Shown here: positions 2,859 through 43,892 of the stretch, piece by piece
Layout: each line of letters begins with the position of its first letter
Position numbering within the stretch: position 1 is the first letter of the stretch
NCBI GenBank assembly: GCA_963825475.1
Contig: CAWGTC010000001.1
Span: 315,742-379,741, forward strand
Length of the DNA: 64,000 nt
Direction: 5' to 3'
Source of the DNA: an uncultured Thermoleophilaceae bacterium
Lineage (GTDB): Bacteria; Actinomycetota; Thermoleophilia; Solirubrobacterales; Thermoleophilaceae
The notes under the pieces: generated by a model
The model's database searches: none
Seen by the model: the letters and a program-made list of their open reading frames with translations, nothing else
What the model was told of the DNA's origin: nothing
Position numbers and translations under genes: made by a program

Positions 2859-2933
2859 TCGGCTGTTGACCCTACCCGCGCCGTCCCCGAGGCACGCCTC
2901 AGAGGCCCACGGGGCGCATTCTCAGAATGTGCC

Positions 2934-2939
2934 TAGAAT
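2934..2939 (+). promoter_or_regulatory. Candidate -10 hexamer TAGAAT next to a 13-bp palindrome (CATTCTCAGAATG, 2917-2929) in the divergent spacer
   Basis: This is the only AT-rich patch in the 95-bp spacer between the MBL gene start (2858) and the coiled-coil gene ATG (2954). TAGAAT fits the TAnnnT actinobacterial -10 pattern. Confidence 0.3.
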
Positions 2940-2953
2940 GGTGCCCTTCAAGG

Positions 2954-4852: not shown

Positions 4853-5211
4853 GGATCAGGCGAAAGAGCGGCGAGGATTCGCCGGCCGTGCGGCCGGTCG
4901 AGTTCGCCGGCACCGAGGCTGAGGCGTACCCCGATCAGCCCGACGAGGTTTCCGAGCAGGATGGGACTGCGTCGGAGCGTGACGAACTGACGGCGCTCGC
5001 CCAAGCTCAGCGGGAGGCGCACGAGCTGCTCGAGCGCCGCCGCAACGAATTGCACTCCGCCCAGTTGACAGAGGCGCGGCGGCAGCTCGCCGCCGCCGAG
5101 GAGCAGTTCGGGCAGGAGCGAGCCGAGCTGGAGGCCGAGGTGGCGGCGGCTCGGTCGGACGCCGAGGCGTGGGTTGGGAGCGTGCGCGAGAGCCACGAGG
5201 AGCTGGGCCAG

Positions 5212-5877
5212 GAGCTCGAGCGTGCTCGGGCCGAGGCGGAGCAGGCGCGGGGCGAGTTGGAGGCCGAGCGCGTGCGCGCGCAGGAGGCGGAGCAGCAGGC
5301 GGGGGTGGCTCGGTCTGAGGCTGAGGAGTGGGTGGCGAGTGTGCGCGAGACGCACGAGCAGCAGGGCCAGGAGCTGGAGGCGGCGCGCACTCGTTCCGCC
5401 GAGCTGGAGGCCGCCTTCGAGGAGCGCGGGCTGGAGCTCGAGCGTGCTCAGGCTGAGGCGGAGCAGGCACGCGGCGAGCGGGAGGGCCTGCAAGTTCGCG
5501 CCGGGGAGCTGGAGGCCGGCGTCGCGGAGCGCGGGCAGGAGCTCGAGCGTGCTCGGGCTGAGGCGGAGCAGGCGCGGGGCGAGTTGGAGGCCGAGCGCGT
5601 GCGCGCGCAGGAGGCGGAGCAGCAGGCTGAGCAGCAGGCGGGGGTGGCTCGGTCTGAGGCTGAGGAGTGGGTGGCGAGTGTGCGCGAGACGCACGAGCAG
5701 CAGGGCCAGGAGCTGGAGGCGGCGCGCACTCGTTCCGCCGAGCTGGAGGCCGCCTTCGAGGAGCGCGGGCTGGAGCTCGAGCGTGCTCAGGCTGAGGCGG
5801 AGCAGGCACGCGGCGAGCTGGAGGGCCTGCAAGTTCGCGCCGGGGAGCTGGAGGCCGGCGTCGCGGAGCGCGGGCAG
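5212..5877 (+). repeat. Near-identical in-frame tandem repeat, 327 bp + 339 bp, inside coiled-coil gene 2
   Basis: Copy 1 spans 5212-5538 and copy 2 spans 5539-5877. They differ by two substitutions and a 12-bp insertion (AEQQ). More diverged copies follow from 5878. Confidence 0.9.
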
Positions 5878-6712
5878 GAGCTCGAGCGTGCTCAGGCCGA
5901 GGCGGAGCAGGTACGCGCCGAGTCGGAGGCCGCGCAAGCTCGCGTCGGGGAGCTGGAGGCCGCGCTCGAGCAGGTGCGTGGCGAGTTGGAGGGCGAGCGG
6001 GCGCGAGCGCAGGAGGCCGAGCAGCAGGCGGCGTCGGCCCGGTCCGACGCTGAGGAGTGGGTTGCGAGTGTGCGCGAGACCCACGAGCAACAGGGCCAGG
6101 AGCTGGAGGCCGCGCACACTCGCGCCGGGGAGCTGGAGGCCGGCCTCGAGGAGCGCGGGCAGGAGCTCGAGCGAGCTCGAGCAGGCCAGGTCCGAGCTGG
6201 AAGCCGCGCACGGCCAGGCGCAGGCTGAGGTAGAGCGTCTGACCCGGGAGGTCTCGGACGCCAAGTCCGCCGAGGAGCGGGCGCGCAACGAGATCAAGCC
6301 GCGAGCCGCGCGCAAGATCGCCGACGCCCAACAGGCCGCTGAGGAGGCGGGTCGCCAGGCCGACGAGGAGCGCGAACGAGTCGCGGCCCTACAGAGCCAG
6401 GTGGCCGAACTCGAGGGCGAACGCGAGCAGTTGCGCGCGAATGCGCAAGAGCTCGAGGGTCAGGCTGCCGCGGCCCGGTCGGAGGCTGAGGAGTGGGTTG
6501 GGAGTGTGCGTGAGAGCCACGAGCAGCTCGGCCAGGCGCTGGAGACCGAGCGGGCCCGCGTCGGTGAGCTCGAGGCCGGCCTCGAAGAGGCGACTCAGGC
6601 GCAGGAGCAGCTACGTGAGGCCAGCGAGCGCGAGCGGGCCGAGGCCCAAGAGGCCCAGGAGGCCCTGCGAGCCGAAGCAGCGGAGAGAGAGCAGGAGCTC
6701 ACCGCCCAGGCC

Positions 6713-6840
6713 GAAGCTCAAGCCGAGGCGCTGAGGGTAGAAACCGAAGCCCAGGCCGAGGCGCTGAGGGTAGAAACCGAAGCCCAGGCCGAGGCGCTGA
6801 GGGTAGAAACCGAAGCCCAGGCCGAGACGCTGCGTGCGGA
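6713..6840 (+). repeat. 33-bp in-frame tandem repeat (EAQAEALRVET), about 3.8 copies
   Basis: The unit gaagcccaggccgaggcgctgagggtagaaacc starts at 6713, 6746 and 6779, with a partial copy from 6812. Confidence 0.9.
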
Positions 6841-7167
6841 CGCCGAAGCGCAGGCCGGTGAGCTGAGGGCTCAGGCGGAGAGCGAGCTCGCGGAGGCCCA
6901 AGTGGCCGCCGACGCTCGCGCTGGCGAGCTCGAGGAGGCGCTGGCCGAGTCCCGCGCCCGGGCCGACCAAGCCGACCACCAGCGTGCGGAGGTCGAGCAG
7001 CGACTGCGCGCGCTCGTGTCGCTCGAGGCCGACGCCCGCCAGGTGCGCGAGCGGCGAATGAGGCAGCTGGAGCGCGAGCTCGCGGAGGCCAGGAACGCCC
7101 CTGGGCCGGCCGTCGAGGCAAGTGAGGTAGATGCTCCCGCTCCAGCAGCATCACCGGCGCCGCCTGA

Positions 7168-7261
7168 GCCTGAGGCCGCATTCGAGCCGGACCCCGAGGC
7201 CACCTTCGAGCCGAGCCCCGAGGCCACCTTCGAGCCGAGCCCCGAGGTCGCCTCCGAGCCG
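7168..7261 (+). repeat. 24-bp in-frame tandem repeat (PEATFEPS), about 4 copies, in the linker before the zinc ribbon
   Basis: The unit cccgaggccaccttcgagccgagc occurs at 7192 and 7216, with diverged copies at 7168 and 7240. Confidence 0.85.
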
Positions 7262-7577
7262 CCTCAGGCCGCCGCTGCTCCATCACCTCTGAGCCAGGAG
7301 GCGATGACCCAGGCCCACGACGTGCGCGCCGCAGGGCCGGGGGCGGTGGAAGAGCAGCGCGGCCTCTTCGGCCGGCGCAGGCGGCGGTCAGGCCAAGGCA
7401 GTTGCTCGGTGTGCAACAACCCCGAGCCCAATCTGCCCCCGGGCGAGCTGGCCCTGAGCGGCTGGATCGAGCGCGGGGACGTGAGCCTGTGCCCTGACTG
7501 CCGCACCATCGGCTGGCAGCTCCCCGAAGGCGCCGCCCTGCCTTTCCGGCGTTTGTCCCAGAAGGGCTAGCGAAGCC

Positions 7578-8912
7578 CTAGAGGCCGCGGCGCCCGAGGA
7601 CGTGCGGGATCGTCCTCATCAGGATCTGCACGTCCGACCACAGCGACCAGTTCACGATGTACAGGTAGTCCAGCGCGACCATGTCCTCGAGCGGCAGGCG
7701 TGTGAAGGGGAGCACCTGCCACACGCCCGTCATCCCCGGCGTGAGATCGAGGCGGCCGCGCTGCCAGCCGATCACCTGGCTGTCCTCGTCGATGATCAGG
7801 GGTCGCGGACCCACCAGGCTCATGTCTCCGCGCAGGACGTTGAACAGCTGCGGCAGCTCATCCAGCGACGCGCCTCTGAGCAGCCGGCCGACACGCGTGA
7901 CCCGGGGGTCGTCCTCGATCTTGAACAGCCCCTCTTCGCGCAACGCCTCGAGCTCGAAGAGGTCGGGCTTCCGATCCTCGGCGTCCATGGCCATCGACCG
8001 GAACTTCAGGATCTGGAAGCTGTCTCCCTTGCGCCCGATGCGCGTCTGGCGAAAGAAGACGGGGCCCCGGGTATCGATCTTGATGGCGAGCGCGATCACC
8101 GCCATGAACGGCGAAAGCAGCAGCAGCCCGGCGCCCGAAAGAAGCGCGTCCATGGATCGCTTGAGGGCGAGCGAGGAGCGGGAGAGCCCGTAGCTGCGGA
8201 CCCCGAGAAGGGTGGAACCCGAGATGTCGTCGAACTCGACGGCCGAACCGAGGACCTCGAAGAGGCCCGGAAGCACACTGACCTTGATCCCCTTGGACTT
8301 GAACAGGCGGATCGTCTCCAGCATCTCGTGGAAGCCGTGATCGGTGTGGGTCACGATCACGCGGTGGAAGTCGCTGCGAGCGAGGTAGTCGCCGAAGGTC
8401 TCGGCGTCCTCACCGCGAGCGGTCACGCGGTTGAAGGGAATCAGCGCCACCAGTTTCGCGTTCAGCGACGGCTGGCAGTCGAGCAGGCGCTTTATCCGGG
8501 CGGCGTACGACACATCGCCCACCAGGACGCATCGTTCGGCGGGGGTTGCGGTCCGGGCCAATCGCCGTGCCAGCGTGCGACAGGTGAGCGTGCCGGTGAA
8601 CAGCACTGCCCAGAACGCGAACAGGGCGATGAAGCCCGGGGGGTCGGTCTCCAGCGCCGCCTGGGCGAACACGACCACGAGCGTGACCAGCGTGCTGAGA
8701 TGCAGGACCGAGGGCGCCTCGTTCAGGGTGGTCTTGTGGAGGACCAACTCGTCGCGGTCGTACAGCCCCATCATCTTCGCGGCGACCACGCAGACCGGCA
8801 GTGCCAGCAGCGACCCGAGCGAGATGAACGACGATGCGAGGGTCAGCCCGACCGAGCAGACGGCAAGGCCCACCGCGAAGAGGTCGGCGACGGCAAGCAT
8901 CCGCCGGTACAC
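7578..8912 (-). CDS. Polyprenyl-phosphate glycosyl-1-phosphate transferase (WbaP/exopolysaccharide initiating sugar transferase family)
   Basis: The C-terminal bacterial sugar transferase domain is clear: PVFFRQTRIGRKGDSFQILKFRSM...DDPRVTRVGRLLRGASLDELPQLFNVLRGDMSLVGPRP. It is preceded by 4-5 TM segments. The 742-aa track ORF is trimmed to GTG 8912 (or ATG 8900) because the upstream part is compositional noise and overlaps the cyclase gene. Confidence 0.85.
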   Translation of the reverse strand: MYRRMLAVADLFAVGLAVCSVGLTLASSFISLGSLLALPVCVVAAKMMGLYDRDELVLHKTTLNEAPSVLHLSTLVTLVVVFAQAALETDPPGFIALFAFWAVLFTGTLTCRTLARRLARTATPAERCVLVGDVSYAARIKRLLDCQPSLNAKLVALIPFNRVTARGEDAETFGDYLARSDFHRVIVTHTDHGFHEMLETIRLFKSKGIKVSVLPGLFEVLGSAVEFDDISGSTLLGVRSYGLSRSSLALKRSMDALLSGAGLLLLSPFMAVIALAIKIDTRGPVFFRQTRIGRKGDSFQILKFRSMAMDAEDRKPDLFELEALREEGLFKIEDDPRVTRVGRLLRGASLDELPQLFNVLRGDMSLVGPRPLIIDEDSQVIGWQRGRLDLTPGMTGVWQVLPFTRLPLEDMVALDYLYIVNWSLWSDVQILMRTIPHVLGRRGL

Positions 8913-9152
8913 CTTGTCGCGGTAGGCGACATCGTCCCGAGGGGCGGATTCGGTGATCCGGGCTGCGCCACGCCCGTCGGTGCCGCGTCGCCGCGGCGCT
9001 CGGACTGTCGGCCTAGCGGGGGCGCCAGGTTTAATGATGAGGTGGACTCCATCCCTCCTGCAAAACGCGATGTTGCCCGGCTGTGTGTAACCGGGCCTTT
9101 GTCGGACGGAGAAACGTAAAGCACTGATGCGACCGTCGCAAGCAGGCGCGGC

Positions 9153-10997
9153 GTGATCGCCGGCGGGCTCGGGGCCGGCCACGGTCGGGTCCGAGACCCC
9201 GGCCGGGCCGCCGGACCGGAGGCCACCCATCGCGAGGCCGGAGCGCTGCGGCTGGCTTGGAACGGAGGCGCGGAGGCCCACGAGGCCGATGGCCTGCTCG
9301 TCGTACTCGACGGATTTCTGCTCGGGCCGATGGCCGATCTGGCGAACGTGGCCGAAGCCTGGCGCCGGGCGGGCAATTCGGTGACCGACCAGTTGCAGGG
9401 TGCCTTCACGATCGTGATCTGGGACGGACGCTCGCAGCGTGGCATCGTGGCTTGCGATCACTTCTCCCTCCGCGTCTGCCTCATGCACGGGACCGAGGGC
9501 GGGACGCTGCGCTTCTCGACCCATCTGCCGACGCTTCGGCGCATGCTCGCGAGCGATCCCGGGCCCGAGCCTCAGGTGATCGTGCCGTGGATCGCGCCCC
9601 AGTACCTCCAAGGTCACAAGACCATGCTGGCCGGAGTCGAGCGCGTCGGTGGTGCGCGATTGCTCGAGCTGAGCGCCGGCGGCTGGCGCCGGCGGCGCTA
9701 CTGGCGCCCGACGTGGAACGGCACGCTCGACGCGCCTCGCGCGGAGCTGGCCGCGATGCTTCGCAGCGAGCTGGCGCGCGCCGTGGCCCAGCGATTGGCC
9801 CCCCACACCCCAACGGGCACGATCCTCAGCGGCGGGCTGGACTCGTCCGTGGTCCTGGCCACCGCGGCCGCGCTCGAACCGCGCCCCGACCTCAGGGCCT
9901 ACTCGACCGTTTTCCCGGATTGGCCCGCGGCCGACGAGTCGCAGCGAATAGCTGCCACCACCGGTTTTCTCGACGTGCCCGCCTCACGGTTCGTAGTACG
10001 TCCCCAAGGTGCCTTGCGCATGGCCCTCGAGCAGCTGCGCGACTCGGGAACGGTTCCCGGCGGACCCGGCGGACTGGTCGAGCGTCCGGGCGTCCGGCAG
10101 GCTGCCGCCGATGGCGTGCACGTGCTATTCGACGGACAGGGGGGCGACGAGGTCTTCGGCAGCTCCCCGTACCTCCTTGCGGATCGCCTGCGCCGAGGCA
10201 ACGTCCGGGGCGCGGTCCGGCTGCTTCGGCGGACGGTGCCCTACCTGCGGCGGCGAACTTCCCAGGCTGCCGCCTGGACTCTCTTGCGCGACTTCGGTCT
10301 GAGCCCGGCGCTGCCTCGGCGGGCTCGCGTGGCGGTCGCGCGCCGGGGCGTCCGTGGCCATCACGCGCCCGAATGGCTCACCGCCGCCTCCGGCCGCACG
10401 CTTTCGGACGTGCACCAGCCGTGGCCTTGGATCGACGACGAGTCCGATGTGCCGCGGTGGTGGGCGTATCAGTCCTACCTGCTCACGGATCACGTAGAAG
10501 GCAGCGGCTTGGGTGAGCACATGTGGGAGCGCGCGGCTCCGTTCGGGATGCGCTCCGCTGCCCCGCTCTTCGATCTGGGCCTCGTGCAGCTCGTGCTGCG
10601 GATGCCTCCCGAAGCGACGTGGCAGCGGGTCGACCGCTCGCTGGCACGGGAGGCGGTGGCCGGCCGGCTCCCGGAGGCCGTGCGCAACAACCGCAGAAAG
10701 GCGAACATCGGGCCCTTCTACCTCGATCTGCTGACCGGGCCCGACAACACGATCGTGCGGGAGCTGCTTCTGGATCCGCGCGCGCGGGTACGCGGGTTCG
10801 TCGATCCCGTGTGGCTGGACCGGAGCCTCGCCCGCCTGCCGACGAGGGCGGACGCCGACTGGCTCATGTGGACCACCGTGGCCTGGCGTCTGGCGATGGC
10901 CGAGTGCTGGCTGCGCTGGCTCGAGGAGCCTGGCTTTCCCGAGTCCATGCTCGACCGGCCGGACCTCCCCGAGGTCTCCGCCCGCCCGGCGACCTAG
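9153..10997 (+). CDS. Lasso peptide cyclase (asparagine synthetase homologue, C protein)
   Basis: 614 aa with an Asn_synthase PP-loop (GTILSGGLDSSVV). The N-terminus (VIAGGLGAG) lacks the Cys2 nucleophile of true AsnB. Precursor, PqqD, B2 and ABC genes are adjacent. Confidence 0.85.
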   Translation: MIAGGLGAGHGRVRDPGRAAGPEATHREAGALRLAWNGGAEAHEADGLLVVLDGFLLGPMADLANVAEAWRRAGNSVTDQLQGAFTIVIWDGRSQRGIVACDHFSLRVCLMHGTEGGTLRFSTHLPTLRRMLASDPGPEPQVIVPWIAPQYLQGHKTMLAGVERVGGARLLELSAGGWRRRRYWRPTWNGTLDAPRAELAAMLRSELARAVAQRLAPHTPTGTILSGGLDSSVVLATAAALEPRPDLRAYSTVFPDWPAADESQRIAATTGFLDVPASRFVVRPQGALRMALEQLRDSGTVPGGPGGLVERPGVRQAAADGVHVLFDGQGGDEVFGSSPYLLADRLRRGNVRGAVRLLRRTVPYLRRRTSQAAAWTLLRDFGLSPALPRRARVAVARRGVRGHHAPEWLTAASGRTLSDVHQPWPWIDDESDVPRWWAYQSYLLTDHVEGSGLGEHMWERAAPFGMRSAAPLFDLGLVQLVLRMPPEATWQRVDRSLAREAVAGRLPEAVRNNRRKANIGPFYLDLLTGPDNTIVRELLLDPRARVRGFVDPVWLDRSLARLPTRADADWLMWTTVAWRLAMAECWLRWLEEPGFPESMLDRPDLPEVSARPAT

Positions 10998-11079
10998 CAC
11001 TTCTTCCAGTCTTGTCCCCGGGTCGGGTGGTGCGTAAAGTCCGGCCGACTGCAAGAGCAGCCTGACGAAACGGAGTCTC

Positions 11080-11247
11080 ATGGAGCAGGGAACACCTCAG
11101 TACGACTTGCCGCGGCTGGTGGACTACGGCCGGCTGCAGGATGTCACCGCCAACAACGGCCAGCCCGTGTTCGTCGACGTCCCGCAGGGCACGCCGGTTC
11201 CGCCGCCCAGCGGCGACATCGTCGGCGACGACGACAACCTGAGCTAG
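11080..11247 (+). CDS. Lasso peptide precursor A1 (55 aa)
   Basis: Not in the ORF track because it is under 60 aa. Sequence: MEQGTPQYDLPRLVDYGRLQDVTANNGQPVFVDVPQGTPVPPPSGDIVGDDDNLS. The leader fits YxxPxLxxxG with Thr at -2. The predicted core is NNGQPVFVD..., with Asp9 as ring acceptor and a C-terminal Ser. GGAG lies 6-9 nt upstream. Confidence 0.8.
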   Translation: MEQGTPQYDLPRLVDYGRLQDVTANNGQPVFVDVPQGTPVPPPSGDIVGDDDNLS

Positions 11248-11250
11248 ATC

Positions 11251-11415
11251 GTGGAACGCGAGACCATCAAGTACGACACGTCGCCCTCCATCACCGATTA
11301 CGGCGATCTGGCGGCGATCACCGCCAACAACAATATCCCGCAGTTCGTCGACGTCCCGCAGGGCACGCCGGTCGGCCAGGGCCCGATCGTCGGCGACGAC
11401 GACAACCTGAGCTAG
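11251..11415 (+). CDS. Lasso peptide precursor A2 (54 aa)
   Basis: The GTG start lies 3 nt after the A1 stop. Sequence: VERETIKYDTSPSITDYGDLAAITANNNIPQFVDVPQGTPVGQGPIVGDDDNLS. The TA|NN...FVD junction and the GDDDNLS end match A1. Confidence 0.75.
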   Translation: MERETIKYDTSPSITDYGDLAAITANNNIPQFVDVPQGTPVGQGPIVGDDDNLS

Positions 11416-11428
11416 CGCCGGTCACCTG

Positions 11429-11448
11429 CTCCACGCCGTCGCGTGGAG
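11429..11448 (+). terminator. Stem-loop immediately after the precursor genes (8-bp stem ctccacgc/gcgtggag, 4-nt loop)
   Basis: Perfect inverted repeat 14 nt after the A2 stop. There is no U-tract, so it is more likely an attenuator or stabiliser than a full terminator. Confidence 0.35.
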
Positions 11449-11692
11449 GTCTAGGCTGCGCCCGTGCCTGCAGGGACGGACGGGGTCGAGATATGGGTGC
11501 TGCTCGAAGCCGAGGACCCTGCGCGGGCGACCGTGCTCGAGACCCTGTCGGCATCGCCAGGGCTCGCGCCCGTGGTTCGTCCATGGCCGGCCCGCGAGCG
11601 AGTGCGGCCGGCCGGCGGCCTTCCTCTGCCGCTATCCAACCTCTGAGCAGCCGACCGCTCTCAAGCGGCGTCTGGGTGGCGCCCGGGCGATC

Positions 11693-12088
11693 GTGCTCGC
11701 CGCGTCCGGCATCCGGCGAGACGACGCGCGCGCAGCAATCGCCCAGGGCGCCGATGCCGTGCTGCTCGAGGACGACGCGCCGGCCGTAGTGCTGCCGGCG
11801 GTGCATGCGGCGCTGGCGGGGCTCGTGGTGCTCTCGGCGGCCCTCGGGCCGGCGGTGGCGCGCTCCCCGCTGACGCCGCGGGAGAAGCAGGTGCTGGCGC
11901 TGGTCGTGATGGGCTACTCGAATCGGGAGATCGCCGATCAGCTGGTGGTCGCGGAGAGCACGGTCAAGAGCCACCTCTTCTCCGCTTTCCGCCGGCTCGG
12001 CGTGCGTTCACGCAGCGAGGCCGTGGCCCTGATCACCGACCCGGGACGCGGCCTGGGAAGCGGGATTTTGACCATCGCACGCGAGTAG
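11693..12088 (+). CDS. LuxR/NarL-type HTH regulator; an upstream receiver-like part may be split by a frameshift
   Basis: The C-terminal HTH is LTPREKQVLALVVMGYSNREIADQLVVAESTVKSHLFSAFRRLGVRSRSEAVALI. Frame 1 from GTG 11464 reads VEIWVLLEAEDPARATVLETLSASPGLAPVV (receiver beta1-alpha1-beta2-like), but it stops at 11646. Confidence 0.65.
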   Translation: MLAASGIRRDDARAAIAQGADAVLLEDDAPAVVLPAVHAALAGLVVLSAALGPAVARSPLTPREKQVLALVVMGYSNREIADQLVVAESTVKSHLFSAFRRLGVRSRSEAVALITDPGRGLGSGILTIARE

Positions 12089-12110
12089 GGGCGGCAGGTA
12101 TCCTCCCCAC

Positions 12111-12413
12111 GTGGGACCGACCAGTGTTGACCAGAGCACCCCCCGGCGGGTCACGATTCCCCAGCATGTCGTCTTTCGCAAGTTCGTGGACGAGACGGTG
12201 GTCCTCAACCTCGAATCCGGGTGCTACCACGGGCTCAATCCGATAGCCGGGTACATGCTCGAGCTGCTTGGTGAGATGGGCGATGTGAGTGCCGTGATCG
12301 AGCGGATCGTCGACGAGACCGGGGTCGCGGAGGACAAGGTGGGCGTCGACCTGCGTGCGCTCTGCGCCTCCCTCGCCGAGCGGGGTCTGATCGAGGTCGA
12401 TGCAGAGAGCTGA
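12111..12413 (+). CDS. PqqD-family RiPP recognition element (lasso B1)
   Basis: 100 aa: ...IPQHVVFRKFVDETVVLNLESGCYHGLNPIAGYMLELLGEMGDVSAVIERIVDETGVAEDKVGVDLRALCASLAERGLIEV. This is the classic PqqD pattern. Confidence 0.85.
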   Translation: MGPTSVDQSTPRRVTIPQHVVFRKFVDETVVLNLESGCYHGLNPIAGYMLELLGEMGDVSAVIERIVDETGVAEDKVGVDLRALCASLAERGLIEVDAES

Positions 12414-13353
12414 GCCCGGCGGCGACGCCGCGCTCGGCCTGCGCTTCACCGGAGACCCTCTTCCCGGCCTCGTGGCCGGAGTAGAGGGCGACCTGCCGTC
12501 GGTAGCCGTGGAGCGCGCCGGCGAGGCCGTGATCGACGAACGCTGGGCCGAGGCGACAGCTCCTGAAGTGATCTTCGCCCGCCCCAATCGTGACGGGACT
12601 CCCTTCCTTCGCATCGAGGCCGACGACTCTGCGGGGTACCGGGTGTCGGCCCGCGGCTACGGCACGCACCTGATCAGCGCGGACGGCAGTGACTGCGTCT
12701 CGAGCCTCCCGGGCGGACCGGCCTGGCGTGGACTGCGGCTGCTGGCCAGCCAGACCATTCCGCTCCTTACCACGCTCCGTGGCCGCGAGGTGATGCACGC
12801 GGCCGGGGCCGTGGTAGGTCAGCGCCTGATCGGCCTCGTAGCCCCATCCGGGACCGGGAAGAGCTCGACGGCGTGCAACCTGATCGCGCACGGCGGAAGC
12901 TTCTTCGCCGACGACGTGCTCGCCCTCGATCTCGTGGACGGCCGCGTTCGCGCCCATCCCGGCCCGCGACTAGTGAGCGTGCATCCGCGCGATCTCGGAG
13001 CGATTCCCGAAGGGCCCCGCGCGAGGATCGGCACACGGCTGGACCAGAGCAACAAGGTGCACCTCGAGCCGGCGGGCTTCCCCCGGGCGCTGCCGCTGCA
13101 CGCCATGGTCTTCCTCGACCGCCGTCCGGAGACGGCGACCACGACCATCTCGGCGCTCGACAACGTGGCCCCGCGACTGCTCGGCAATGCTTTCGTGTCC
13201 TACTTCGACGCTCCCGAGAGGCTGGCGCGGCAGCTCGAGATCGCGGGCACGCTGGCGGAGACCATCCCGCTGGCCAGCCTCGACATCGCGGCCGGGGACG
13301 GCGCCTCCACGGTCGCGCGCCGGGTCGGCGAATGGGTGGAGACCCTCCCGTGA
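12400..13353 (+). CDS. HPr kinase-like P-loop kinase (lasso precursor C-terminal Ser kinase type)
   Basis: 317 aa. GLVAPSGTGKSSTACNLIAHGGSFFADDVLAL resembles the HprK C-terminal domain (GxSGxGKS...ADD). It overlaps B1 by 14 nt and B2 by 4 nt. Confidence 0.8.
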   Translation: MQRAEPGGDAALGLRFTGDPLPGLVAGVEGDLPSVAVERAGEAVIDERWAEATAPEVIFARPNRDGTPFLRIEADDSAGYRVSARGYGTHLISADGSDCVSSLPGGPAWRGLRLLASQTIPLLTTLRGREVMHAAGAVVGQRLIGLVAPSGTGKSSTACNLIAHGGSFFADDVLALDLVDGRVRAHPGPRLVSVHPRDLGAIPEGPRARIGTRLDQSNKVHLEPAGFPRALPLHAMVFLDRRPETATTTISALDNVAPRLLGNAFVSYFDAPERLARQLEIAGTLAETIPLASLDIAAGDGASTVARRVGEWVETLP

Positions 13354-13787
13354 GCGGCGCGGCGCGTGCCGGCCTCGATCCGCTCCTGCGCGCGTCACCT
13401 CTGCCCCCGGTGGTTCGTGCCCGGATCGGCGCCGAGATTATCGCGACCTATGCCGAGGTCAGGTGGCGGATGCTCCGTGGCGATATCCGGGACGTCGTGG
13501 CCACGTTGCGCGGGGAGACCGACGATGTGCACGACCTCTCCGATGCGCGCCGGATGGGCATCCGTCTCGGACGGGCGGTGCGCCGGACGCTCGATCCGCT
13601 TCCGTTCGACTCGCGTTGTTTGATGCGCTCGCTCGTGCTGCAGCGCATGCTCGCGCGGCGGGGAGTCGTCTGCCGGCTCGTGATCGGCGTCCGCCCGGGG
13701 GAGACCCTCGAGGCCCATGCCTGGATCGAGCACGGGGGCCTGCCGTTGCTGCCCACGCTCGGCTATGAGCCACTCACGGTCCTCTGA
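13350..13787 (+). CDS. Lasso peptide leader peptidase B2 (transglutaminase-like Cys protease)
   Basis: GTG 13350 overlaps the kinase stop (GTGA). Sequence: ...FDSRCLMRSLVLQRMLARRGVVCRLVIGVRPGETLEAHAWIEHGGLPLLP. The Cys...His spacing is typical of McjB-like B2 proteins. This is the tail of track ORF 12873..13787. Confidence 0.85.
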   Translation: MSGAARAGLDPLLRASPLPPVVRARIGAEIIATYAEVRWRMLRGDIRDVVATLRGETDDVHDLSDARRMGIRLGRAVRRTLDPLPFDSRCLMRSLVLQRMLARRGVVCRLVIGVRPGETLEAHAWIEHGGLPLLPTLGYEPLTVL

Positions 13788-13788
13788 G

Positions 13789-15684
13789 TCAGCGGTATGC
13801 GGCGGCCTGCAGGTCGAACAGCTCGGCGTAGCGGCCGCCGAGCGCCACGAGCTGCTCGTGTGAGCCCTCCTCGACGATCGCGCCTTCGTGCAGGACGTAT
13901 ATGCGGTCGGCCGATCTGACGGTGGAGAAGCGGTGGGAGATCAGCAGCACGGAGCGTCCGCGGGCCAGGGCCTGGACGTACTCGAACAGCTCGTGCTCCG
14001 AGCGGGCGTCGAGCGACGCTGTCGGCTCGTCGAGCACCAGCAGGCGAGCCTCCCTGAAGAAGGCGCGCGCGAGCGCGATGCGCTGCCATTGGCCCAGCGA
14101 CAGGTCATACCCGCCCGTGAACTCCTTGCCCAGAAGCGTCTCGTAGCCCTGGGGCAGGCGTTCGAGATAGTCGTGGGCACCGGCCTGCTTCGCCGCCTCG
14201 ATGATCGCCTGCGTGTCCTCGACCGCCTCCGCTCTGCCGAACCCGATGTTCTCCCGCGCGGTGAGCTGATAGCGCACGAAATCTTGGAAGATCACGCCTA
14301 CGTGGCGCCTGAGCGCGCGCCGGTCGAGCGTGCGGATGTCGATGCCGTCCCACAGCACCCTGCCTTCCGTGGGCGTGAACAGCGCACCGAGCAGCTTGGC
14401 GAGCGTCGTCTTGCCTGAGCCGTTCTCCCCGACGAGGGCTACCACCTCCCCTGCGCCGATCCGCAACGACACGCCGTTCAGCGCCTTGTACTCGGCGTTG
14501 GGATAGGCGAAGTGCACGTTCTCCACGACGAGCTCGCTGAACGGCGCCACCTCCTCGAGGGGGGCGGAGGTGCGCTCGGAGGTCGCCGCCGGCGCCCGAG
14601 CGAGGAAGCGATGGAGGTCGCCAAGGAACAGGCTTGACTCGAAGAGCCGGCTGATGCCCTTGAACACCTGCTCGATGCGCGATCCCAGGAGGCGAATCGC
14701 GAGCACCGCGGCCCCTGCCTCCGCCAGACCGATCCGGTCCGAGAGCACGAACGAGATCAGCAGCGCGAACGCGGCGCTCGTGACCACCACTGTCGCGAGC
14801 GTCCCGGCCAGGGCAAGAAGCAGCCGGCGCCGGACATGGACGCGCAGGTCACGCAGGTAGTCCAGGTAGCTGCGATCCCAGCGGCGGCGAAGGATCTGGC
14901 CTAGGCCGAAGGCCCGCAGCTCCTTCGCCTCCTCACGTCCGATCAGCGTCTGGACGAGGTAGAAGCGCAACCGGGTGCCCGGGGTCTGCTCGACGTTGAA
15001 GCCGAACTCGATCTTCCCCGTCGCCCGGGAGAGGAGCCACAGCGGCAGCGCCGACGCGAACAGGATGGGCACCACGAGCGGCTCGATGATGACCAGGGCC
15101 ACGGTGAGCCCGACCGCCCCGAGGATGCCCCCAATTGTCGCGATCAGGCCCTGTGAAAGGGTCAGAGGCTGAAGCAGAGCGTTGGTCTGGACCCGCTGGA
15201 GGTCGTCGAAGAACTCGGGCGACTCGAAGGTCTCCAGGTCCACCGCCGTGGTCACGGAGAGCATGGAGTCGAGCGTCGAGCGTTGCACGTGCTCGCCGAG
15301 CATTCGCTGGGCAAGGGTCTGGAAGGAGCCGGCGAAGCTGCCGAGCGCGCCCGCGGCCACGAGGCCGATCAGCGGGGGCAGAGCATCGAGCACGGCGCCG
15401 TCCGACTGCGTGGTCTCGAGAATGGCCTCGAGCGCCAGCTTGCCGAGAAGGACTTGGACGCCGAGCAGCACGGCGACGAAGATCTGCGCCACGGCGCAGA
15501 GATCGAACAGCCGGGGATTCGCCTCGCGGGCCAGCTTCACCGCCGAGCGTGCGATACCCGGCAGGCTGCGAACCGTCCTGGGCCTCCCCTTCCCCGACAG
15601 GTAGTACTGCTGGCGGTCGAAGGGCTTCTGGTCGCTCTCTCCCTCCGCGCCTGACGGCGGCGGCTTCCCACTGTCGTCAGGCAT
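13789..15684 (-). CDS. ABC transporter, fused permease/ATPase (lasso exporter D type)
   Basis: Walker A is GENGSGKTT, the signature is LSLGQWQR, Walker B is LLVLDEPT, and 6 TM segments lie N-terminal. The start is trimmed to ATG 15684 (MPDDSGKPP...), which avoids overlap with the divergent gene at 15737. Confidence 0.85.
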   Translation of the reverse strand: MPDDSGKPPPSGAEGESDQKPFDRQQYYLSGKGRPRTVRSLPGIARSAVKLAREANPRLFDLCAVAQIFVAVLLGVQVLLGKLALEAILETTQSDGAVLDALPPLIGLVAAGALGSFAGSFQTLAQRMLGEHVQRSTLDSMLSVTTAVDLETFESPEFFDDLQRVQTNALLQPLTLSQGLIATIGGILGAVGLTVALVIIEPLVVPILFASALPLWLLSRATGKIEFGFNVEQTPGTRLRFYLVQTLIGREEAKELRAFGLGQILRRRWDRSYLDYLRDLRVHVRRRLLLALAGTLATVVVTSAAFALLISFVLSDRIGLAEAGAAVLAIRLLGSRIEQVFKGISRLFESSLFLGDLHRFLARAPAATSERTSAPLEEVAPFSELVVENVHFAYPNAEYKALNGVSLRIGAGEVVALVGENGSGKTTLAKLLGALFTPTEGRVLWDGIDIRTLDRRALRRHVGVIFQDFVRYQLTARENIGFGRAEAVEDTQAIIEAAKQAGAHDYLERLPQGYETLLGKEFTGGYDLSLGQWQRIALARAFFREARLLVLDEPTASLDARSEHELFEYVQALARGRSVLLISHRFSTVRSADRIYVLHEGAIVEEGSHEQLVALGGRYAELFDLQAAAYR

Positions 15685-15736: not shown

Positions 15737-16486
15737 GTGAGCGCGCTGCATGTCGTCATCCTCGCTGCCGGCAAAGGCAGCCGCCTGGGCGCGCTCGGGG
15801 CCCAGAAGCCCAAGTGGCTGCTCGACGTCGGGGACCGGACTATCGCCGACCACCAGCTCGAGGGCCTGGAACGGGCGTCCGGCACGGTCGCGTCGGTGAG
15901 GGTGGTCACAGGTCACGCCCGCGAGGCCATCGACAGGTTTCTCGAGGCCGGCCGCGATGTCCAGGTGGTCCACAACATCGAGTACGCGCGCCTCAACAAC
16001 TGGTACTCGGTGCTGCTGGCGCTGCGGTCCATCACCGACCCTGATCCGCGCGTGGCGATCATCAACGGCGACCTCTTCGCGCGCGCGGACTGGATAGCCA
16101 AGTTTCTGGTCGACAGCACCGGCACTTCCTCCGAGTCGCTGATCGCCGTGGATACCCAGCGGCCCGTGACCGACGAGTCGATGAAGGTGGCCATGGACGG
16201 AGCCTCTCGACTGAGCGCGATCGGCAAGGAAGGCATCGTGAACCCCGTGGGGGAATACGTGGGCATGCTGATGGCGGCGGGATCGGTGCTAGAGGACTTC
16301 CGCACCGCACTGGAACGCTTCGAGCGCCAACCGGAGTCCGCGAATGAGTGGTACGAGAGCGCCGTGGGCGTCTCCGCCGCTGCGGGCACGGATTGGACGG
16401 TGTGGCCGACTCCCGACAGCCACTGGGTCGAGATCGACGACGATGCCGACCATTCGATCGCGCTGCGGATGAGCGAAAGTCTCTGA
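15737..16486 (+). CDS. MobA/LicC-like NTP-transferase (putative cytidylyltransferase)
   Basis: 249 aa with an N-terminal VVILAAGKGSRLG nucleotide-binding loop and an NNWYSVLLA motif, as seen in LicC/IPCT-like cytidylyltransferases. Confidence 0.7.
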   Translation: MSALHVVILAAGKGSRLGALGAQKPKWLLDVGDRTIADHQLEGLERASGTVASVRVVTGHAREAIDRFLEAGRDVQVVHNIEYARLNNWYSVLLALRSITDPDPRVAIINGDLFARADWIAKFLVDSTGTSSESLIAVDTQRPVTDESMKVAMDGASRLSAIGKEGIVNPVGEYVGMLMAAGSVLEDFRTALERFERQPESANEWYESAVGVSAAAGTDWTVWPTPDSHWVEIDDDADHSIALRMSESL

Positions 16487-16488
16487 AA

Positions 16489-17548
16489 GTGCGGGAGCGC
16501 ACCATCGCGATTCCGCGCCTGCTGCACGTGGGTCCGGACTGCCTGTCCGCGCTTGCGCCCCTGCTCAAGGAATCGTCCTTCGACCTGACCCGGATCCTCG
16601 TCGGATCGGGCAGCGGACCGTCGGTCAAGTTCGCCGATCAGGCGCTCGACGGTCTCAGGCACGTGGGGCTCGATGCTTCCGGCGCTCGGGGCCTGGCCGG
16701 GCGGCTCGACCAGGCCGCCGAGCTGGCCGCCAGCGTTATCAGCGACGGCGTGACGCTGCTGGTGGCGGTGGGAGGGGGGAGGGTGATCGACACGGTCAAG
16801 CTGGCCGCTGCCCGTACGGGCACCGATTTCGTGAGCGTGCCCACAGCGATATCGCACGATGGCATCAGCTCTCCGGTGGCGTCGCTGGTGCCGAAGGAGG
16901 GAGCGCGTCAGTCCTACGCGGCCTCCATGCCGGGCGGGATCATCGTGGACGTCGGCGTGATCGGCTCGGCGCCCCCTAGGACACTCCGGGCCGGAGTCGG
17001 GGATCTGGTGAGCAATCTCACCGCTTTGCTGGATTGGCGACGCGCCGATCGGCTCGGTCATGCGCGCTTCGACGCCTTCTCGGCGATGATCGCCGAGCAC
17101 GCGGCCCGGCCGGTGCTCGACCTCGAGGATCTGGGTCGTCCCGAGAGCCACGAGCTGATCGCGAAGGGTCTGTTGATGAGCGGCTTGGCCATGGCCGCGG
17201 CGGGTACCAGCCGACCCTGCTCCGGAGCAGAGCACTTGATCAGCCACAGCCTCGACGAGATCCTGGGGGAGCGGGCGGCGATGCACGGGGAGCAGGTGGC
17301 GCTCGGCTGCCTGGTGGCAGCGGCCGCCCACGACTCGCCCCTGCGGTCCACCCTGATGTCGTTCTTCTCGCAGCTCCGGCTGCCCACGGCTCCCGGGGAT
17401 CTCGGCGTGACCGAGCACGAGCTGACCGAGGCCATACGCGCCGCTCCCGCCACGCGGCCCGATCGCTACACAGATTCTCTCCGACGTGCTCGAGCAGCCG
17501 GACGATCTTGCGCCGCTCCTCGAGCGGGCGTTCGCCACCCCCGACTGA
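16489..17548 (+). CDS. sn-glycerol-1-phosphate dehydrogenase-like (AraM/EgsA, iron-ADH/DHQS-like superfamily); apparent 1-nt frameshift at about 17473
   Basis: GTG 16489 lies 2 nt after the previous stop. Motifs: LVAVGGGRVIDTVK, SVPTAISHDG, GAEHLISHSLD, MHGEQVALG. Frame 1 reads ...RPDRYT, then frame 2 continues ILSDVLEQPDDLAPLLERAFATPD* and ends at 17548. Left uncorrected, the ORF runs to 17613 into the convergent gene. Confidence 0.6.
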
Positions 17549-17566
17549 TCGCCGCAGCGCCGATAC

Positions 17567-18745
17567 CTAGCTGGGAAGAGCGTTCGTCAGAGCTTGCTCG
17601 ACGCTCTGGTTGAACCGAACGGCGGTGTGGTGCTCGGCGGTAGCCAGACCACCTCGTCTCAGCGTCGCGCGGAGGGCTGGGTCGCGGGCCAGCTGCTGAA
17701 CGCGGCCGGCGAGTTGCGGCGCGTCCTCAGCTGGATAGAGCAGTCCGTTCTTACCGTGGATCAGATACTCGCCGGATCCTCCCCGCCCGGTTGCCACGAC
17801 CGGCCGGCCACTGGCCATGGCTTCCAGGGGCACGAGGCCCCATGGCTCTTTCCACACGACGGGGAATATGACTGCGTCGGCGGCGGCATAAACCGCCGGG
17901 AGCTCCCCAGGGTGGCGCGGACCGTCGAAGGTCAGCCTGTCCGCGACGCCGAGGGAGGAAGCGAGCTCGGCGAGCGCAGCGAGGTGGTCGGGGGGGCCGT
18001 CGCCGACCACCCTGAGGGTTGCGTCCGGCAGGTCGGCCAACGCCTCTATGACGGTCGAAACCCCCTTACGCGGGTCCACCCGTCCCACGTAGAGGAGCCG
18101 ACCCTGCCAAGCGCGCTCGGGTGCCGGGGAGAACTGGGAACCGATGCCGGACGGAATCACCGATGTGTCGGTGAGGTCCAACCCGCGATCTAGAGCGTGC
18201 GCGCGCGTGGCGCAGCTCACGAATGCGTAGTGAGCGGCAGCGTCGAAATGGATCCGGCCAGGTGAGCGGAGCACCCGATCGAGCAGCCCAGGTGGGTAAC
18301 GGCGACGTCGGGCGCGCCGGTTCCAGGCGTCCGCGCGACGTCCATAGTCGAGCCAGTCGTCGTGGACGAAGGCCACCGCCGGAAGGCGGTGCCGGCGCGC
18401 GATCTCGAGCATGGACATGCTGAGGCCGCCCATCGACCACCACGAAACGACATCCGGCTCGAAGTCGACGAGGTGGCGCTCCAATACCGAGATGTTGTGG
18501 CGCTCGATCGCCAGCGACTCGCGCGCGGACCGCGGCGGGAATCCGTGGTCGTGCCAGTACCAGCGAATCTCCCGGTGGGTGTCCGCGATCTCCGCGAGCG
18601 CGGGGTCGCGCACATTGTCCACCGTCAGGACACGGACGGCGTGCCCGCGCCCCTCGAGATAGCTCACGGCACCCTCCCATACCGCCTCGTAGCCGCCGCC
18701 AAGGTCCTGAGGGGGAAAGCTGTTGCCGACGGTCAGGACTCGCAC
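17567..18745 (-). CDS. Glycosyltransferase family 4 (GT-B)
   Basis: The start is trimmed to GTG 18745 (VRVLTVGNSFPPQDLGGGYE). The C-terminus has the GT1/GT4 signature ...VIFPVVWKEPWGLVPLEAMASGRPVVATGRGGSGEYL. Confidence 0.8.
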   Translation of the reverse strand: MRVLTVGNSFPPQDLGGGYEAVWEGAVSYLEGRGHAVRVLTVDNVRDPALAEIADTHREIRWYWHDHGFPPRSARESLAIERHNISVLERHLVDFEPDVVSWWSMGGLSMSMLEIARRHRLPAVAFVHDDWLDYGRRADAWNRRARRRRYPPGLLDRVLRSPGRIHFDAAAHYAFVSCATRAHALDRGLDLTDTSVIPSGIGSQFSPAPERAWQGRLLYVGRVDPRKGVSTVIEALADLPDATLRVVGDGPPDHLAALAELASSLGVADRLTFDGPRHPGELPAVYAAADAVIFPVVWKEPWGLVPLEAMASGRPVVATGRGGSGEYLIHGKNGLLYPAEDAPQLAGRVQQLARDPALRATLRRGGLATAEHHTAVRFNQSVEQALTNALPS

Positions 18746-26402: not shown

Positions 26403-26572
26403 CTTGCCTAGATCTGGATACAGCACGCGCGCTCCCCGGTCCATGCGACCGTATCGGGTCCGCGGCGAGGTGGCTTTAAGCCGAGGGCCGGAACGGGCGC
26501 TCCGGCCCGGTCCGCTCATCGCCGTTGGAGGCGGCGGCTATACGGTACTGCCGCGCTTCGCGCCCTTCACCC

Positions 26573-27697
26573 ATGCCGCAGCTCTCTCGTATCCCTGGTC
26601 TCCGCCAACTGCCCGGCGCCCTGGGCCCGATTCGTGAAGACGTTGTGCTCTTCGAGAGCTGGCGCGGTCAATTCTCGGACAATCCGCGCGCGATCTCCGA
26701 GGAGCTCCACAGGCGCGGCGCGGAACTCCAACACGTCTGGGTGGTGGACCCGGCACTGGCCGGGAAAGTCCCGGACTGGGTCGTGCCGGTGGCTCCCGAG
26801 AGTGCCGGCCATCTCGCCATGATGGGACGTGCCCGCTACCTCGTGGCCAACGGAACCGTGCTGGGGTTTCACCGCAAGCGGCGCGGCACGACCTTCCTAC
26901 AGACCTGGCACGGCACCCCGCTCAAGAAAATTGGCTTCGACACCAACCGGGACGACTCGCGCCCGTCGCGGCAAGCGGGGAAGACGCTGGAGCGGAACAT
27001 CCCGAACTGGGACCTGCTGCTGTCGCCGAACCACTTCAGCACGCCCATCTTGCGTGACGCTTTCAGGTACTCCGGCACGGTTCTGGAGACAGGCTATCCA
27101 CGCAACGACCTGTTGCTGGCCCCTGAGGCCGGCGAGATCCGTGAGCGCGTTCGGGAGGAACTCGGAATCGCAGGGGGTCAACGGGCCGTGCTCTACGCCC
27201 CGACATTCCGCGACAGGGCCAGGTTCTCAGGCGAGGCCGAGATGCAGCGGCTCGCCCGCGACCTTGGCCCATCGCAAGTGGTGCTACTTCGCACCCACAA
27301 GACGGACGCGGGACAGCTCACGCTCGGCCCGCGCGCGCTGTTCCACGACGTGTCTGCCTACCCGGACAATCGTGAGCTCTACCTCGCCGCGGACGTCCTT
27401 GTTACCGACTATTCCTCGCTCATGTTCGACTTCGCCGTAACACGGAAGCCGATGCTGTTCTACACGCCTGATCTCGCGCAGTACCGCGACGAGCTGCGGG
27501 GGTTCTATTTCGACTTCGAGGCCGAGGCACCCGGGCCGCTGTTGTTCACGCTCGACGATGTGACGCGCGCGCTCGAAGATCTCGATGCAATCGTTGACGG
27601 TCACAGGGATGCGTATGCGCGCTTTCGCGAGCGTTTCTGCCACCTCGAGGACGGCCACGCGTCCGAGCGCGTAGTGGACGCACTGCTCGCCGTCTGA
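26573..27697 (+). CDS. CDP-glycerol glycerophosphotransferase (TagB/TagF family)
   Basis: FESWRGQFSDNPRAISEEL, LQTWHGTPLKKIGFD, LYAPTFRD and LVTDYSSLMFDFAVTRKPMLFYTPDL are hallmark TagF-family blocks. The alternative TTG start at 26525 is not excluded. Confidence 0.8.
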   Translation: MPQLSRIPGLRQLPGALGPIREDVVLFESWRGQFSDNPRAISEELHRRGAELQHVWVVDPALAGKVPDWVVPVAPESAGHLAMMGRARYLVANGTVLGFHRKRRGTTFLQTWHGTPLKKIGFDTNRDDSRPSRQAGKTLERNIPNWDLLLSPNHFSTPILRDAFRYSGTVLETGYPRNDLLLAPEAGEIRERVREELGIAGGQRAVLYAPTFRDRARFSGEAEMQRLARDLGPSQVVLLRTHKTDAGQLTLGPRALFHDVSAYPDNRELYLAADVLVTDYSSLMFDFAVTRKPMLFYTPDLAQYRDELRGFYFDFEAEAPGPLLFTLDDVTRALEDLDAIVDGHRDAYARFRERFCHLEDGHASERVVDALLAV

Positions 27698-43244: not shown

Positions 43245-43343
43245 TTCGGCTCCGGCGGCGGGATGACGAGGCCTACGTGACTGTCCGAACCTGCGCCGCT
43301 AGCGGGCCGTTGGGTGTACCGTGGGCTGCACAGGGAGCCCCGG

Positions 43344-43874: not shown

Positions 43875-43892
43875 CAAGACCGGCAGGCGAGC

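Follow-up and report, generated by a model that had tools for sequence, protein, structure and literature searches.

We identified a gene cluster at positions 9153-15684 of a 64,000-nucleotide (nt) stretch of DNA (the window; contig CAWGTC010000001.1, positions 315,742 to 379,741) that is probably a split-B, kinase-type lasso peptide biosynthetic gene cluster (BGC) of an uncultured Thermoleophilia actinobacterium. The cluster encodes an Asn-synthetase-like lasso cyclase (C), two precursor peptides (A1 and A2), a LuxR-type regulator (R), a PqqD-type RiPP (ribosomally synthesised and post-translationally modified peptide) recognition element (RRE; B1), an HprK-like peptide kinase (K), a transglutaminase-like leader peptidase (B2) and a convergent ATP-binding cassette (ABC) exporter (D). 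A preliminary description, made from the letters of the window, had proposed this gene set, and every one of its members was found where it had been placed.

Coordinates are given as window positions. The C gene (9153-10997, plus strand) encodes a protein of 614 amino acids (aa) homologous to Asn synthetase B, with SGGLDS at residues 226-231. It is followed on the same strand by A1 (11080-11247; 55 aa, with a 24-aa leader at 11080-11151 and a 31-aa core at 11152-11244) and A2 (11251-11415; 54 aa, GTG start, with a 25-aa leader at 11251-11325 and a 29-aa core at 11326-11412), which is in the frame of A1 and starts one codon past its stop. Next are R (11464-12088; REC-like domain and LuxR/GerE helix-turn-helix (HTH), interrupted by a +1-nt frameshift near 11599), B1 (12111-12413; 100 aa), K (12400-13353; 317 aa) and B2 (13350-13787; 145 aa, GTG start), a Cys protease. 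D (13789-15684; 631 aa, fused transmembrane and nucleotide-binding domains) lies on the minus strand and converges with B2, the two stops being one base apart. The coordinates bear out the proposed translational overlaps of 14 nt between B1 and K (12400-12413) and 4 nt between K and B2 (13350-13353, GTGA). Our models of C, A1, A2, K, B2 and D, with the same starts, are the exact proteins called on an NCBI/ENA contig of 382,643 bp, so these gene models are independently supported. GC content is ~70% throughout the window, and the composition of the cluster is not distinct from the rest. A hairpin 3′ of A2 (11428-11447), considered as an attenuator or terminator, is no better than shuffled sequence (z -1.18), and a promoter and terminator scan returned nothing above expectation.

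A genome scan with the kinase profile identified 59 related loci (L001 and so on), nearly all from uncultured Thermoleophilia (Thermoleophilaceae, Solirubrobacterales and Gaiellales), with a few from other phyla. The closest are metagenome-assembled genomes (MAGs) of Thermoleophilia, in agreement with the Actinobacteria-like host proposed earlier. C, B1, K and B2 occur together in at least 24 of the 59 loci. The closest locus, L002 from a Thermoleophilaceae MAG, has the order C-A-R-B1-K-B2 with a convergent D, at 60-77% identity, and shares the outer flanks of the window cluster (diacylglycerol-kinase-like and metallo-beta-lactamase (MBL) genes on the left, GT4 and Wzy genes on the right). This comparison delimits C through D as the functional unit, the interval 9153-15684 originally drawn. 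It also shows that the set is intact for the six enzyme and precursor open reading frames (ORFs), which are full length relative to L002; the claim of an intact set fails for R, which is frameshifted here. We considered two further genes as cluster members, an NTP_transf_3 gene (15737-16486) and a glycerol-1-phosphate (G1P) dehydrogenase-like gene (16348-17613), and rejected both: they are absent from the syntenic L002, where a GT4 gene directly follows D. The closest relative of K itself (72% identity) is in L001, in a decayed cluster (4400-11300) that lacks C and precursor genes, retains only the two ends of D, has B1 fused to K and contains many frameshifted genes.

Support from profile hidden Markov models (HMMs) was judged against the curated cut-offs of Pfam and NCBIfam. 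The assignments of C, B1 and B2, on which the earlier proposal had been staked, all pass such cut-offs. C scores 128.5 bits on Asn_synthase (Pfam accession PF00733, cut-off 21). In NCBIfam, C matches the lasso isopeptide cyclase model NF033535 best (113 bits, far under the cut-off of 525), and it reaches 112 and 91 bits on two models of exopolysaccharide (EPS)-associated amidotransferases (TIGR03104 and TIGR03108). The N-terminus of C reads V/M-I-A-G (VIAGG), without the Cys2 nucleophile, and GATase matches are sub-threshold only. The start is backed by a homologous N-terminus in the syntenic L002 gene, which is 66% identical. C is thus an Asn-synthetase homologue with an SGGLDS PP-loop and no Cys2, as described before. 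Since the cut-off of the lasso model is not reached, we assign C as the cyclase on the strength of the missing Cys2 and the gene context: in 28 related loci a precursor gene lies directly downstream (or upstream) of the C homologue. A PDB sequence search with C returned only generic Asn-synthetase-type enzymes.

B1 passes the PqqD model (Pfam accession PF05402, 50.3 bits, cut-off 23.4), and its top NCBIfam matches are lasso PqqD chaperones. Among PDB sequences it matches TbiB1 best (5v1u/5v1v, E 2.1e-5), a lasso RRE crystallised together with its leader, and LppB (9x8z) next. The PqqD-like RRE of the earlier account is thereby confirmed, with TbiB1 as its closest solved relative. The transglutaminase-like protease B2, recognised earlier by its CLMRSL and AHAWIEHGG motifs, passes both Transglut_core3 (66.3 bits, cut-off 26) and the lasso-specific NCBIfam model NF033537 (65.1 bits, cut-off 33). 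Cys90 (DSRCLMRSL) and His123 (AHAWIEH) are kept across 31 homologues; no conserved third (Asp) catalytic residue was identifiable in the homologue alignment, and a PDB sequence search with B2 gave no useful match. D scores 120 bits on ABC_tran (cut-off 25), with NCBIfam matches of the MsbA/HlyB type. Walker A, the signature and Walker B are at 419, 528 and 548, respectively, and the N-terminal half has four separate hydrophobic stretches. Its minus-strand position next to the B2 stop agrees with the convergent ABC exporter proposed; the L002 exporter is 77% identical and likewise convergent, and D also holds this position in L063.

K was proposed to be an HprK-like kinase. It scores 19.1 bits on Hpr_kinase_C, under the gathering cut-off (GA) of 33.3, and 25.5 bits on HprK_rel_A, and a PDB sequence search with it gave no useful match. 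This is the one weak profile result among the assignments. An AlphaFold (AF2) model built on 32 homologues has a predicted local distance difference test score (pLDDT) of 95.3, and its top PDB fold matches by Foldseek are the catalytic domain of Lactobacillus casei HprK/P (2qmh, 1kkm and 1kkl; E 2.5e-7 to 5e-7), with template modelling (TM) scores of 0.55-0.62 on the target; phosphoenolpyruvate carboxykinase (PEPCK), which has the same fold, ranks next. H133, G151, G153, K154, D171 and D172 are invariant in the 32 homologues and form the motif H133...G151-x-G153-K154-S155...D171-D172. The spacing of 21 from His to Lys and 17 from Lys to Asp-Asp equals that of BsfK (H148, K169, D186/D187), where these residues are important by mutagenesis (PMC10368454). 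The earlier assignment thus misses the Hpr_kinase_C cut-off, and the HprK/P fold of the model, the BsfK-spaced motif and the invariant C-terminal Ser of the precursors (see below) support K as an HprK-like lasso-peptide kinase. Many K homologues carry precomputed PF27840 matches.

Other kinase homologues occur in a different context. In L012 (8200-10948), L014 and L019, one lies beside a polyprenyl glycosylphosphotransferase, without lasso genes. In the L012 protein the conserved His is replaced by Arg and Walker A reads PPTSGKTS; this homologue may be inactive.

Both precursors are called genes in the public collection (A1 is P0157, A2 is P0227), and both have T-2 and G-8, in keeping with the two precursor genes of the preliminary description. 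The A1 leader has Y-17, P-14, L-12, G-8, T-2 and A-1. Among the small ORFs adjoining C homologues in related loci we aligned 20 precursors, in which Y-17, P-14, D-10, G-8 and T-2 are invariant and L-6 and the ring-closing Asp nearly so. By sequence, this is the canonical lasso leader code (YxxPxL...G...Tx), for which we estimate about 1e-5 chance matches in the window, and it places the cleavage site after Thr-Ala. The A2 leader keeps T-2, G-8 and P-14; its YDTSP has a 1-aa insertion in YxxP that displaces Tyr by one (11272-11290), where the A2 orthologues on two other metagenome contigs (L061 and L062) have a regular YESP. These two contigs also carry a tandem A1-like/A2-like pair.

The A1 core is NNGQPVFVDVPQGTPVPPPSGDIVGDDDNLS (31 aa) and the A2 core is NNNIPQFVDVPQGTPVGQGPIVGDDDNLS (29 aa). 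The boundary fits the invariant Y-17/P-14/G-8/T-2 motif, so the cores begin with Asn as proposed; the proposed length stands for A1, and that of A2 is 29 rather than 30 aa. Neither core contains a basic residue; A1 has five and A2 four acidic residues, and both end in ...DDDNLS. The acceptor for the macrolactam, sought at core positions 7-9, is Asp9 in both. A1 and its 84%-identical L061 orthologue differ by 10 synonymous and 9 non-synonymous codons, of which 2 of the 9 are in the core, and the peptides look to be under purifying selection.

A precursor profile search identified 1191 proteins at E <= 0.01. The following core-type statistics refer to the best 120 of these 1191 matches, and P0107-P0226 are the proteins of this precursor family. 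The ring Asp is Asp9 in 115 and Asp8 in 5 of the best 120. We found three tightly conserved core types: NNxxPxFVDVPQGTP...S, to which A1 and A2 belong (NN type); ACLGGxGGD...CKSTP, with two Cys; and GCxGSPxD...CFSTP. Cores across the family are 29-38 aa long, and their variation is unusually small for RiPP cores. All 48 NN-type cores among the best 120 have Asp9 and a C-terminal Ser, and Thr14 (PQGTP) is also nearly invariant in them. A few members of the other types bear the NCBI name 'lasso RiPP family leader peptide-containing protein [Solirubrobacterales bacterium]', so automatic annotation already recognises the precursor family.

A LuxR-type regulator had been described as embedded in the cluster. 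The ORF called for it (11693-12088) passes GerE (66.3 bits, cut-off 23.5) and proves to be the C-terminal part of a frameshifted gene of ~208 aa. The R orthologue in L002 is an intact 208-aa ORF (REC-like domain and LuxR HTH). Compared with it, the first ~45-50 residues of the window R lie in the 11464 frame (11464-11646) and the rest in the 11411-12088 frame, and a DNA alignment places one extra base in the window near 11599. R homologues of 205-245 aa occur in 27 related loci. Two other window genes are similarly broken: a GT8 gene (32843-33411) is split across frames, with Pfam profile positions 87-181 and 191-251 on separate ORFs, and a GT4 gene (38403-39649) is split into fragments in different frames. 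The splits in R, GT8 and GT4 suggest assembly indel errors, or several pseudogenes. Because the GT8 and GT4 genes are also split, an assembly indel is as likely a cause of the break in R as a real pseudogene.

All steps of the following pathway are proposed by homology. A1 and A2 would be translated as 55- and 54-aa precursors, whose leaders B1 would bind via Y-17/P-14/L(I)-12. K would phosphorylate the precursors, with the C-terminal Ser as the most likely site because it is the site of four characterised kinases and is invariant in NN-type cores: PadeK, ThcoK, SyanK and PsmK phosphorylate the C-terminal Ser of linear precursors (PMC9266682, PMC8498205). BsfK phosphorylates Ser3, so other sites are possible (PMC10368454). 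B1 probably assists phosphorylation, and several phosphates may be added. B2, with Cys90/His123, is predicted to cut past Thr(-2)-Ala(-1) and free the alpha-amine of Asn1. C would use its PP-loop (SGGLDS) to adenylate the side chain of Asp9 and close a 9-residue Asn1-Asp9 macrolactam around the tail. The predicted products are very acidic class II lasso peptides of 31 and 29 aa, with calculated masses (M) of 3127.473 (A1) and 2987.426 (A2) and a further 79.966 per phosphate. D would export the lasso peptides. R is the putative pathway regulator of the family, though frameshifted in this sequence.

A large cell-surface glycopolymer locus surrounds the cluster. Among its genes are a polyprenyl glycosylphosphotransferase (7578 to ~8900, minus strand), the G1P-dehydrogenase-like Fe-ADH_2 gene with its NTP_transf_3 (cytidylyl/nucleotidyl-transferase) neighbour (15737-17613) and two TagF-like CDP-glycerol glycerophosphotransferases (26525-27697 and 40947-42041). 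Several GT4, GT2 and GT28/Alg14 genes, Wzy_C, methyltransferases, a flippase and PMT-like genes are also present. With the NTP_transf_3, Fe-ADH_2 and two TagF-like genes, this Thermoleophilia genome has a teichoic-acid-like gene set for poly(glycerol phosphate). In ~25 of the 59 loci, the kinase has homologues of these particular polysaccharide proteins within 10 kb, a count made without a background control and among phylogenetically related loci. Paeninodin-like clusters of Bacilli are found in the same polysaccharide setting (Popov et al. 2026, PMC13381572).

Two other regions of the window were noted. At 2927-7570, long ORFs are open on both strands, match no Pfam family and contain tandem peptide repeats (e.g. 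AEAQAEALRVETE); the coding strand is ambiguous, and the region is absent from the syntenic L002. At 45039-45679, the minus strand has two small ORFs of 130 and 83 aa that overlap and, judged by sequence alone, resemble a PIN-type toxin/antitoxin pair. They lie directly past K2, a second kinase described next.

We identified a second module (42045-44852), ~30 kb from the lasso cluster, that shares its leader code. A motif scan detected LP (43344-43874, plus strand; called gene P0231), a 176-aa LPXTG protein with a lasso-type leader, YDQPQVRDYGSLVTLTA. Searching the window by tblastn with the cluster proteins identified K2 (43893-44852, plus strand), a second HprK-like kinase of 319 aa that is 34.5% identical to K and scores 32.6 bits on Hpr_kinase_C (GA 33.3). 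N5 (42045-43244, minus strand), an NTP_transf_5 nucleotidyltransferase (Pfam accession PF14907, 98 bits), is divergent from LP and K2, has a TagF-like gene on its other side and is a candidate trans-acting tailoring enzyme. LP reads ...VYDQPQVRDYGSLVTLTA|DFDVHFVGSVAKIVTLATVSSP..., followed by ~100 Gly-rich residues, RLPFTG, a hydrophobic stretch and RRRS. It thus has the lasso leader code but no Asp or Glu at core positions 7-9, and an LPFTG sorting signal at its C-terminus. No sortase or signal peptidase was found in the window, and no signal-peptidase or PqqD gene adjoins LP and K2 there.

A word-indexed search with the LP N-terminus found nothing. Scanning 1.84 billion representatives in full with HMMER gave LP itself and 40 further cluster representatives, mostly of 130-200 aa. 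In a 31-member alignment, the Y, P and G of the leader and the L, F and G of LPFTG are invariant, and the family consensus is DFDxxFVGSVAKxVTMAAVSxP. A kinase lies 3′ of LP, with or without PqqD between, in all LP contexts examined: LP-K in L009; GT2-LP-K on a Joint Genome Institute (JGI) contig; an LP-kinase fusion in P0242; minus-strand N5 and LP-PqqD-K2 in L001, immediately upstream of its decayed cluster; HEAT-N5-LP-PqqD-K-B2 in L064; LP-PqqD-K-B2 in L065; and, in L063, C-A-B1-B2-D followed by LP-K, a sugar transferase, HEAT and N5. N5 homologues adjoin LP in L001, L063 and L064 and occur within the lasso cluster itself in L006, L013 and L030. By analogy with PsmN of pseudomycoidin, N5 may act on phospho-Ser (PMC9266682). 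Many related loci carry two kinase paralogs; K and K2 are about equally distant (33-42%) from most homologues, with no grouping into lasso-linked and LP-linked kinases.

We tentatively propose, as a possibility that we hold to be more doubtful than probable, a conserved two-substrate Thermoleophilia system, with the lasso cluster as one arm, in which one leader code (YxxPxVxDYGxLxxLTA) directs both small lasso precursors and LP, a Gly-rich LPXTG-anchored surface protein of 130-200 aa, to a shared RRE, HprK-like kinases, lasso-type B2 and NTP_transf_5, all within a teichoic-acid-like glycopolymer locus. If this were true, RiPP machinery would phosphorylate a sortase-anchored envelope protein, LP, possibly with subsequent glycosylation or glycerophosphorylation, and the phosphorylated lasso peptides would serve the cell envelope instead of being purely antibiotics.

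Several points weigh against the assignment of 9153-15684 as a kinase-type lasso peptide cluster. C scores no higher on the lasso-cyclase model than on generic amidotransferase models, K is below the curated cut-offs of both Pfam and NCBIfam, R is frameshifted near 11599, and the A2 leader has YxxxP rather than YxxP. We know of no characterised lasso peptide with Asn at core position 1, and the family to which this cluster belongs has yielded no observed product. The first of these points, together with the position of the cluster in a glycopolymer locus, would suit C being an ordinary Asn-synthetase-type amidotransferase of the polysaccharide locus beside small ORFs that arose by chance. That reading has next to no probability and is effectively refuted by the missing Cys2 (with GATase matches sub-threshold), by the adjoining precursors and by the lasso-specific equivalog model that B2 passes: a lasso-leader precursor with Asp or Glu at position 8 or 9 stands beside the C homologue in 28 loci, and the leader motif is expected by chance in the window only ~1e-5 times. 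The frameshift in R relative to L002 and the insertion in the A2 leader could instead mean that the cluster is silent or decaying and makes nothing, with a broken regulator and one damaged recognition motif, much as the related L001 has lost C, A and most of D. We regard this as unlikely, given that none of the six enzyme and precursor ORFs is broken or shortened relative to its L002 counterpart, that the split GT8 and GT4 genes fit assembly indels as well as decay, and that an HTH-only product from 11693 is possible.

The B1-K-B2 type of operon also stands behind the non-lasso LP gene in relatives, which counts against our assignment in that the substrate of K in the window cluster is not certain. 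B1, K and B2 might mainly or also serve LP, in which case K would not strictly be a lasso-tailoring enzyme. The lasso peptides may then be left unphosphorylated, or K and K2 might divide the substrates differently than their positions suggest. LP has the same leader motif, the window has a single RRE and a single B2, L064 and L065 have the operon LP-PqqD-kinase-B2, and L063 has its sole kinase 3′ of LP and none within its lasso operon, C-A-B1-B2-D. We nevertheless consider it rather unlikely, for LP has its own adjoining kinase, K2, K lies between B1 and B2 directly behind A1 and A2, the lasso unit of L002 contains K, with LP absent within 20 kb, and all 48 NN-type cores end in Ser, as a kinase target would predict. 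The target residue could also differ: K might phosphorylate Thr14 of PQGTP or Ser20 of A1, or carry out another phosphotransfer, instead of acting on the C-terminal Ser. BsfK acts on Ser3 and not on the C-terminus (PMC10368454), Thr14 hardly varies among NN-type cores, and more distant family members end in Pro with Ser or Thr two or three residues earlier. This is quite improbable, as the C-terminal Ser is the site of the four characterised lasso kinases (PMC9266682), core position 3 here has no Ser or Thr, and the terminal Ser is the sole hydroxyl residue conserved along with a highly variable tail end.

We thus favour a kinase-type lasso peptide cluster whose C-terminal Ser is the likely target of K. 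With 1191 precursor-like matches and dozens of MAG loci, kinase-type lasso logic is widespread in uncultured soil Thermoleophilia. The cores are unusually conserved, long and strongly anionic, which speaks for a conserved target or a role in physiology and not for an antibiotic in an arms race. For heterologous production, the cluster offers two defined peptides whose masses are predicted, and an LPXTG protein with the same leader provides a testable link between lasso-type RiPP machinery and cell-envelope modification. Among family size and conservation, the recurrent glycopolymer setting and the LP-K2-N5 module, the last most deserves follow-up.

According to reviews, kinase-type lasso clusters belong to Bacillota and Proteobacteria (PMC8498205, PMC9266682), in agreement with the architecture known from Firmicutes and Proteobacteria to which the preliminary description had compared this cluster; Bradymonadales are a further group (PMC10368454). 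We found none reported from Actinomycetota or Thermoleophilia in the literature searched, which was incomplete, and a literature search on Asn1 lasso peptides gave nothing informative. HPr-rel-A (TIGR04352 and TIGR04353) and SynChlorMet ScmC/ScmD (PF27840 and TIGR04248) systems are related to the cluster by weak profile matches only, with K at 25.5 bits and B1 at 19.5 and 22.9 bits, far below the curated cut-offs. From their family descriptions, these systems are to our knowledge without lasso C and B2 genes.

LP-K2-N5 resembles the linear polyphosphorylated peptide (LPP) clusters recently described in Bacillota (Popov et al. 2026, PMC13381572): in both, the precursor is long and its leader is of the YxxPxV type, an HprK-like kinase is accompanied by an uncharacterised NTP transferase, and both lie near kinase-type lasso clusters inside polysaccharide loci. 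LP-K2-N5 differs from LPP in that no SpI-type signal peptidase was seen, in the lasso-type B2 that follows the kinase in L064 and L065, and in its LPXTG end, its actinobacterial host and its lack of Ser at core position 3. It does not show the LPP feature set of an SpI-like peptidase, a discrete RRE and an MsbA-like exporter by the kinase and NTP transferase. In the pseudomycoidin pathway of Bacillus pseudomycoides (PsmK and PsmN; PMC9266682), a kinase is paired with an annotated nucleotidyltransferase, as in the relatives L006, L013 and L030; unlike there, the NTP_transf_5 gene of the window is 26 kb from the lasso cluster, beside LP and K2. The bsf cluster of Bradymonas sediminis (BsfK, BsfB1, BsfB2 and BsfN) has the same kinase motif with identical spacing, a kinase-stimulating RRE, and a kinase together with a nucleotidyltransferase (PMC10368454). 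BsfK targets Ser3 and its precursor leader has Ile at -2, whereas the window precursors have the canonical Thr(-2) and no Ser or Thr at position 3.

Paeninodin has a 9-residue ring closed on Asp9. Like the window cluster, paeninodin-type clusters (PadeK, ThcoK and SyanK) have split B1/B2, an Asn-synthetase-like C and an ABC exporter (PMC9266682, PMC8498205), an HPr-kinase homologue with the His-Lys-Asp-Asp motif and precursors ending in Ser. The window leaders have YxxP where paeninodin-like Bacillota precursors have a nearly invariant Trp (WxxP; PMC13381572). With Tyr in its leaders, not Trp, the cluster works like the Bacillota paeninodin-like clade and is not a member of it. It further differs from that clade in the Asn-Asn start of its 29-31-aa cores, its Actinomycetota/Thermoleophilia host, a conserved REC-LuxR member, the position of the kinase between B1 and B2, and a kinase under the curated HMM cut-offs. 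These differences leave the kind of system unchanged: the cluster is an uncharacterised, recognisable lineage of a known BGC class.

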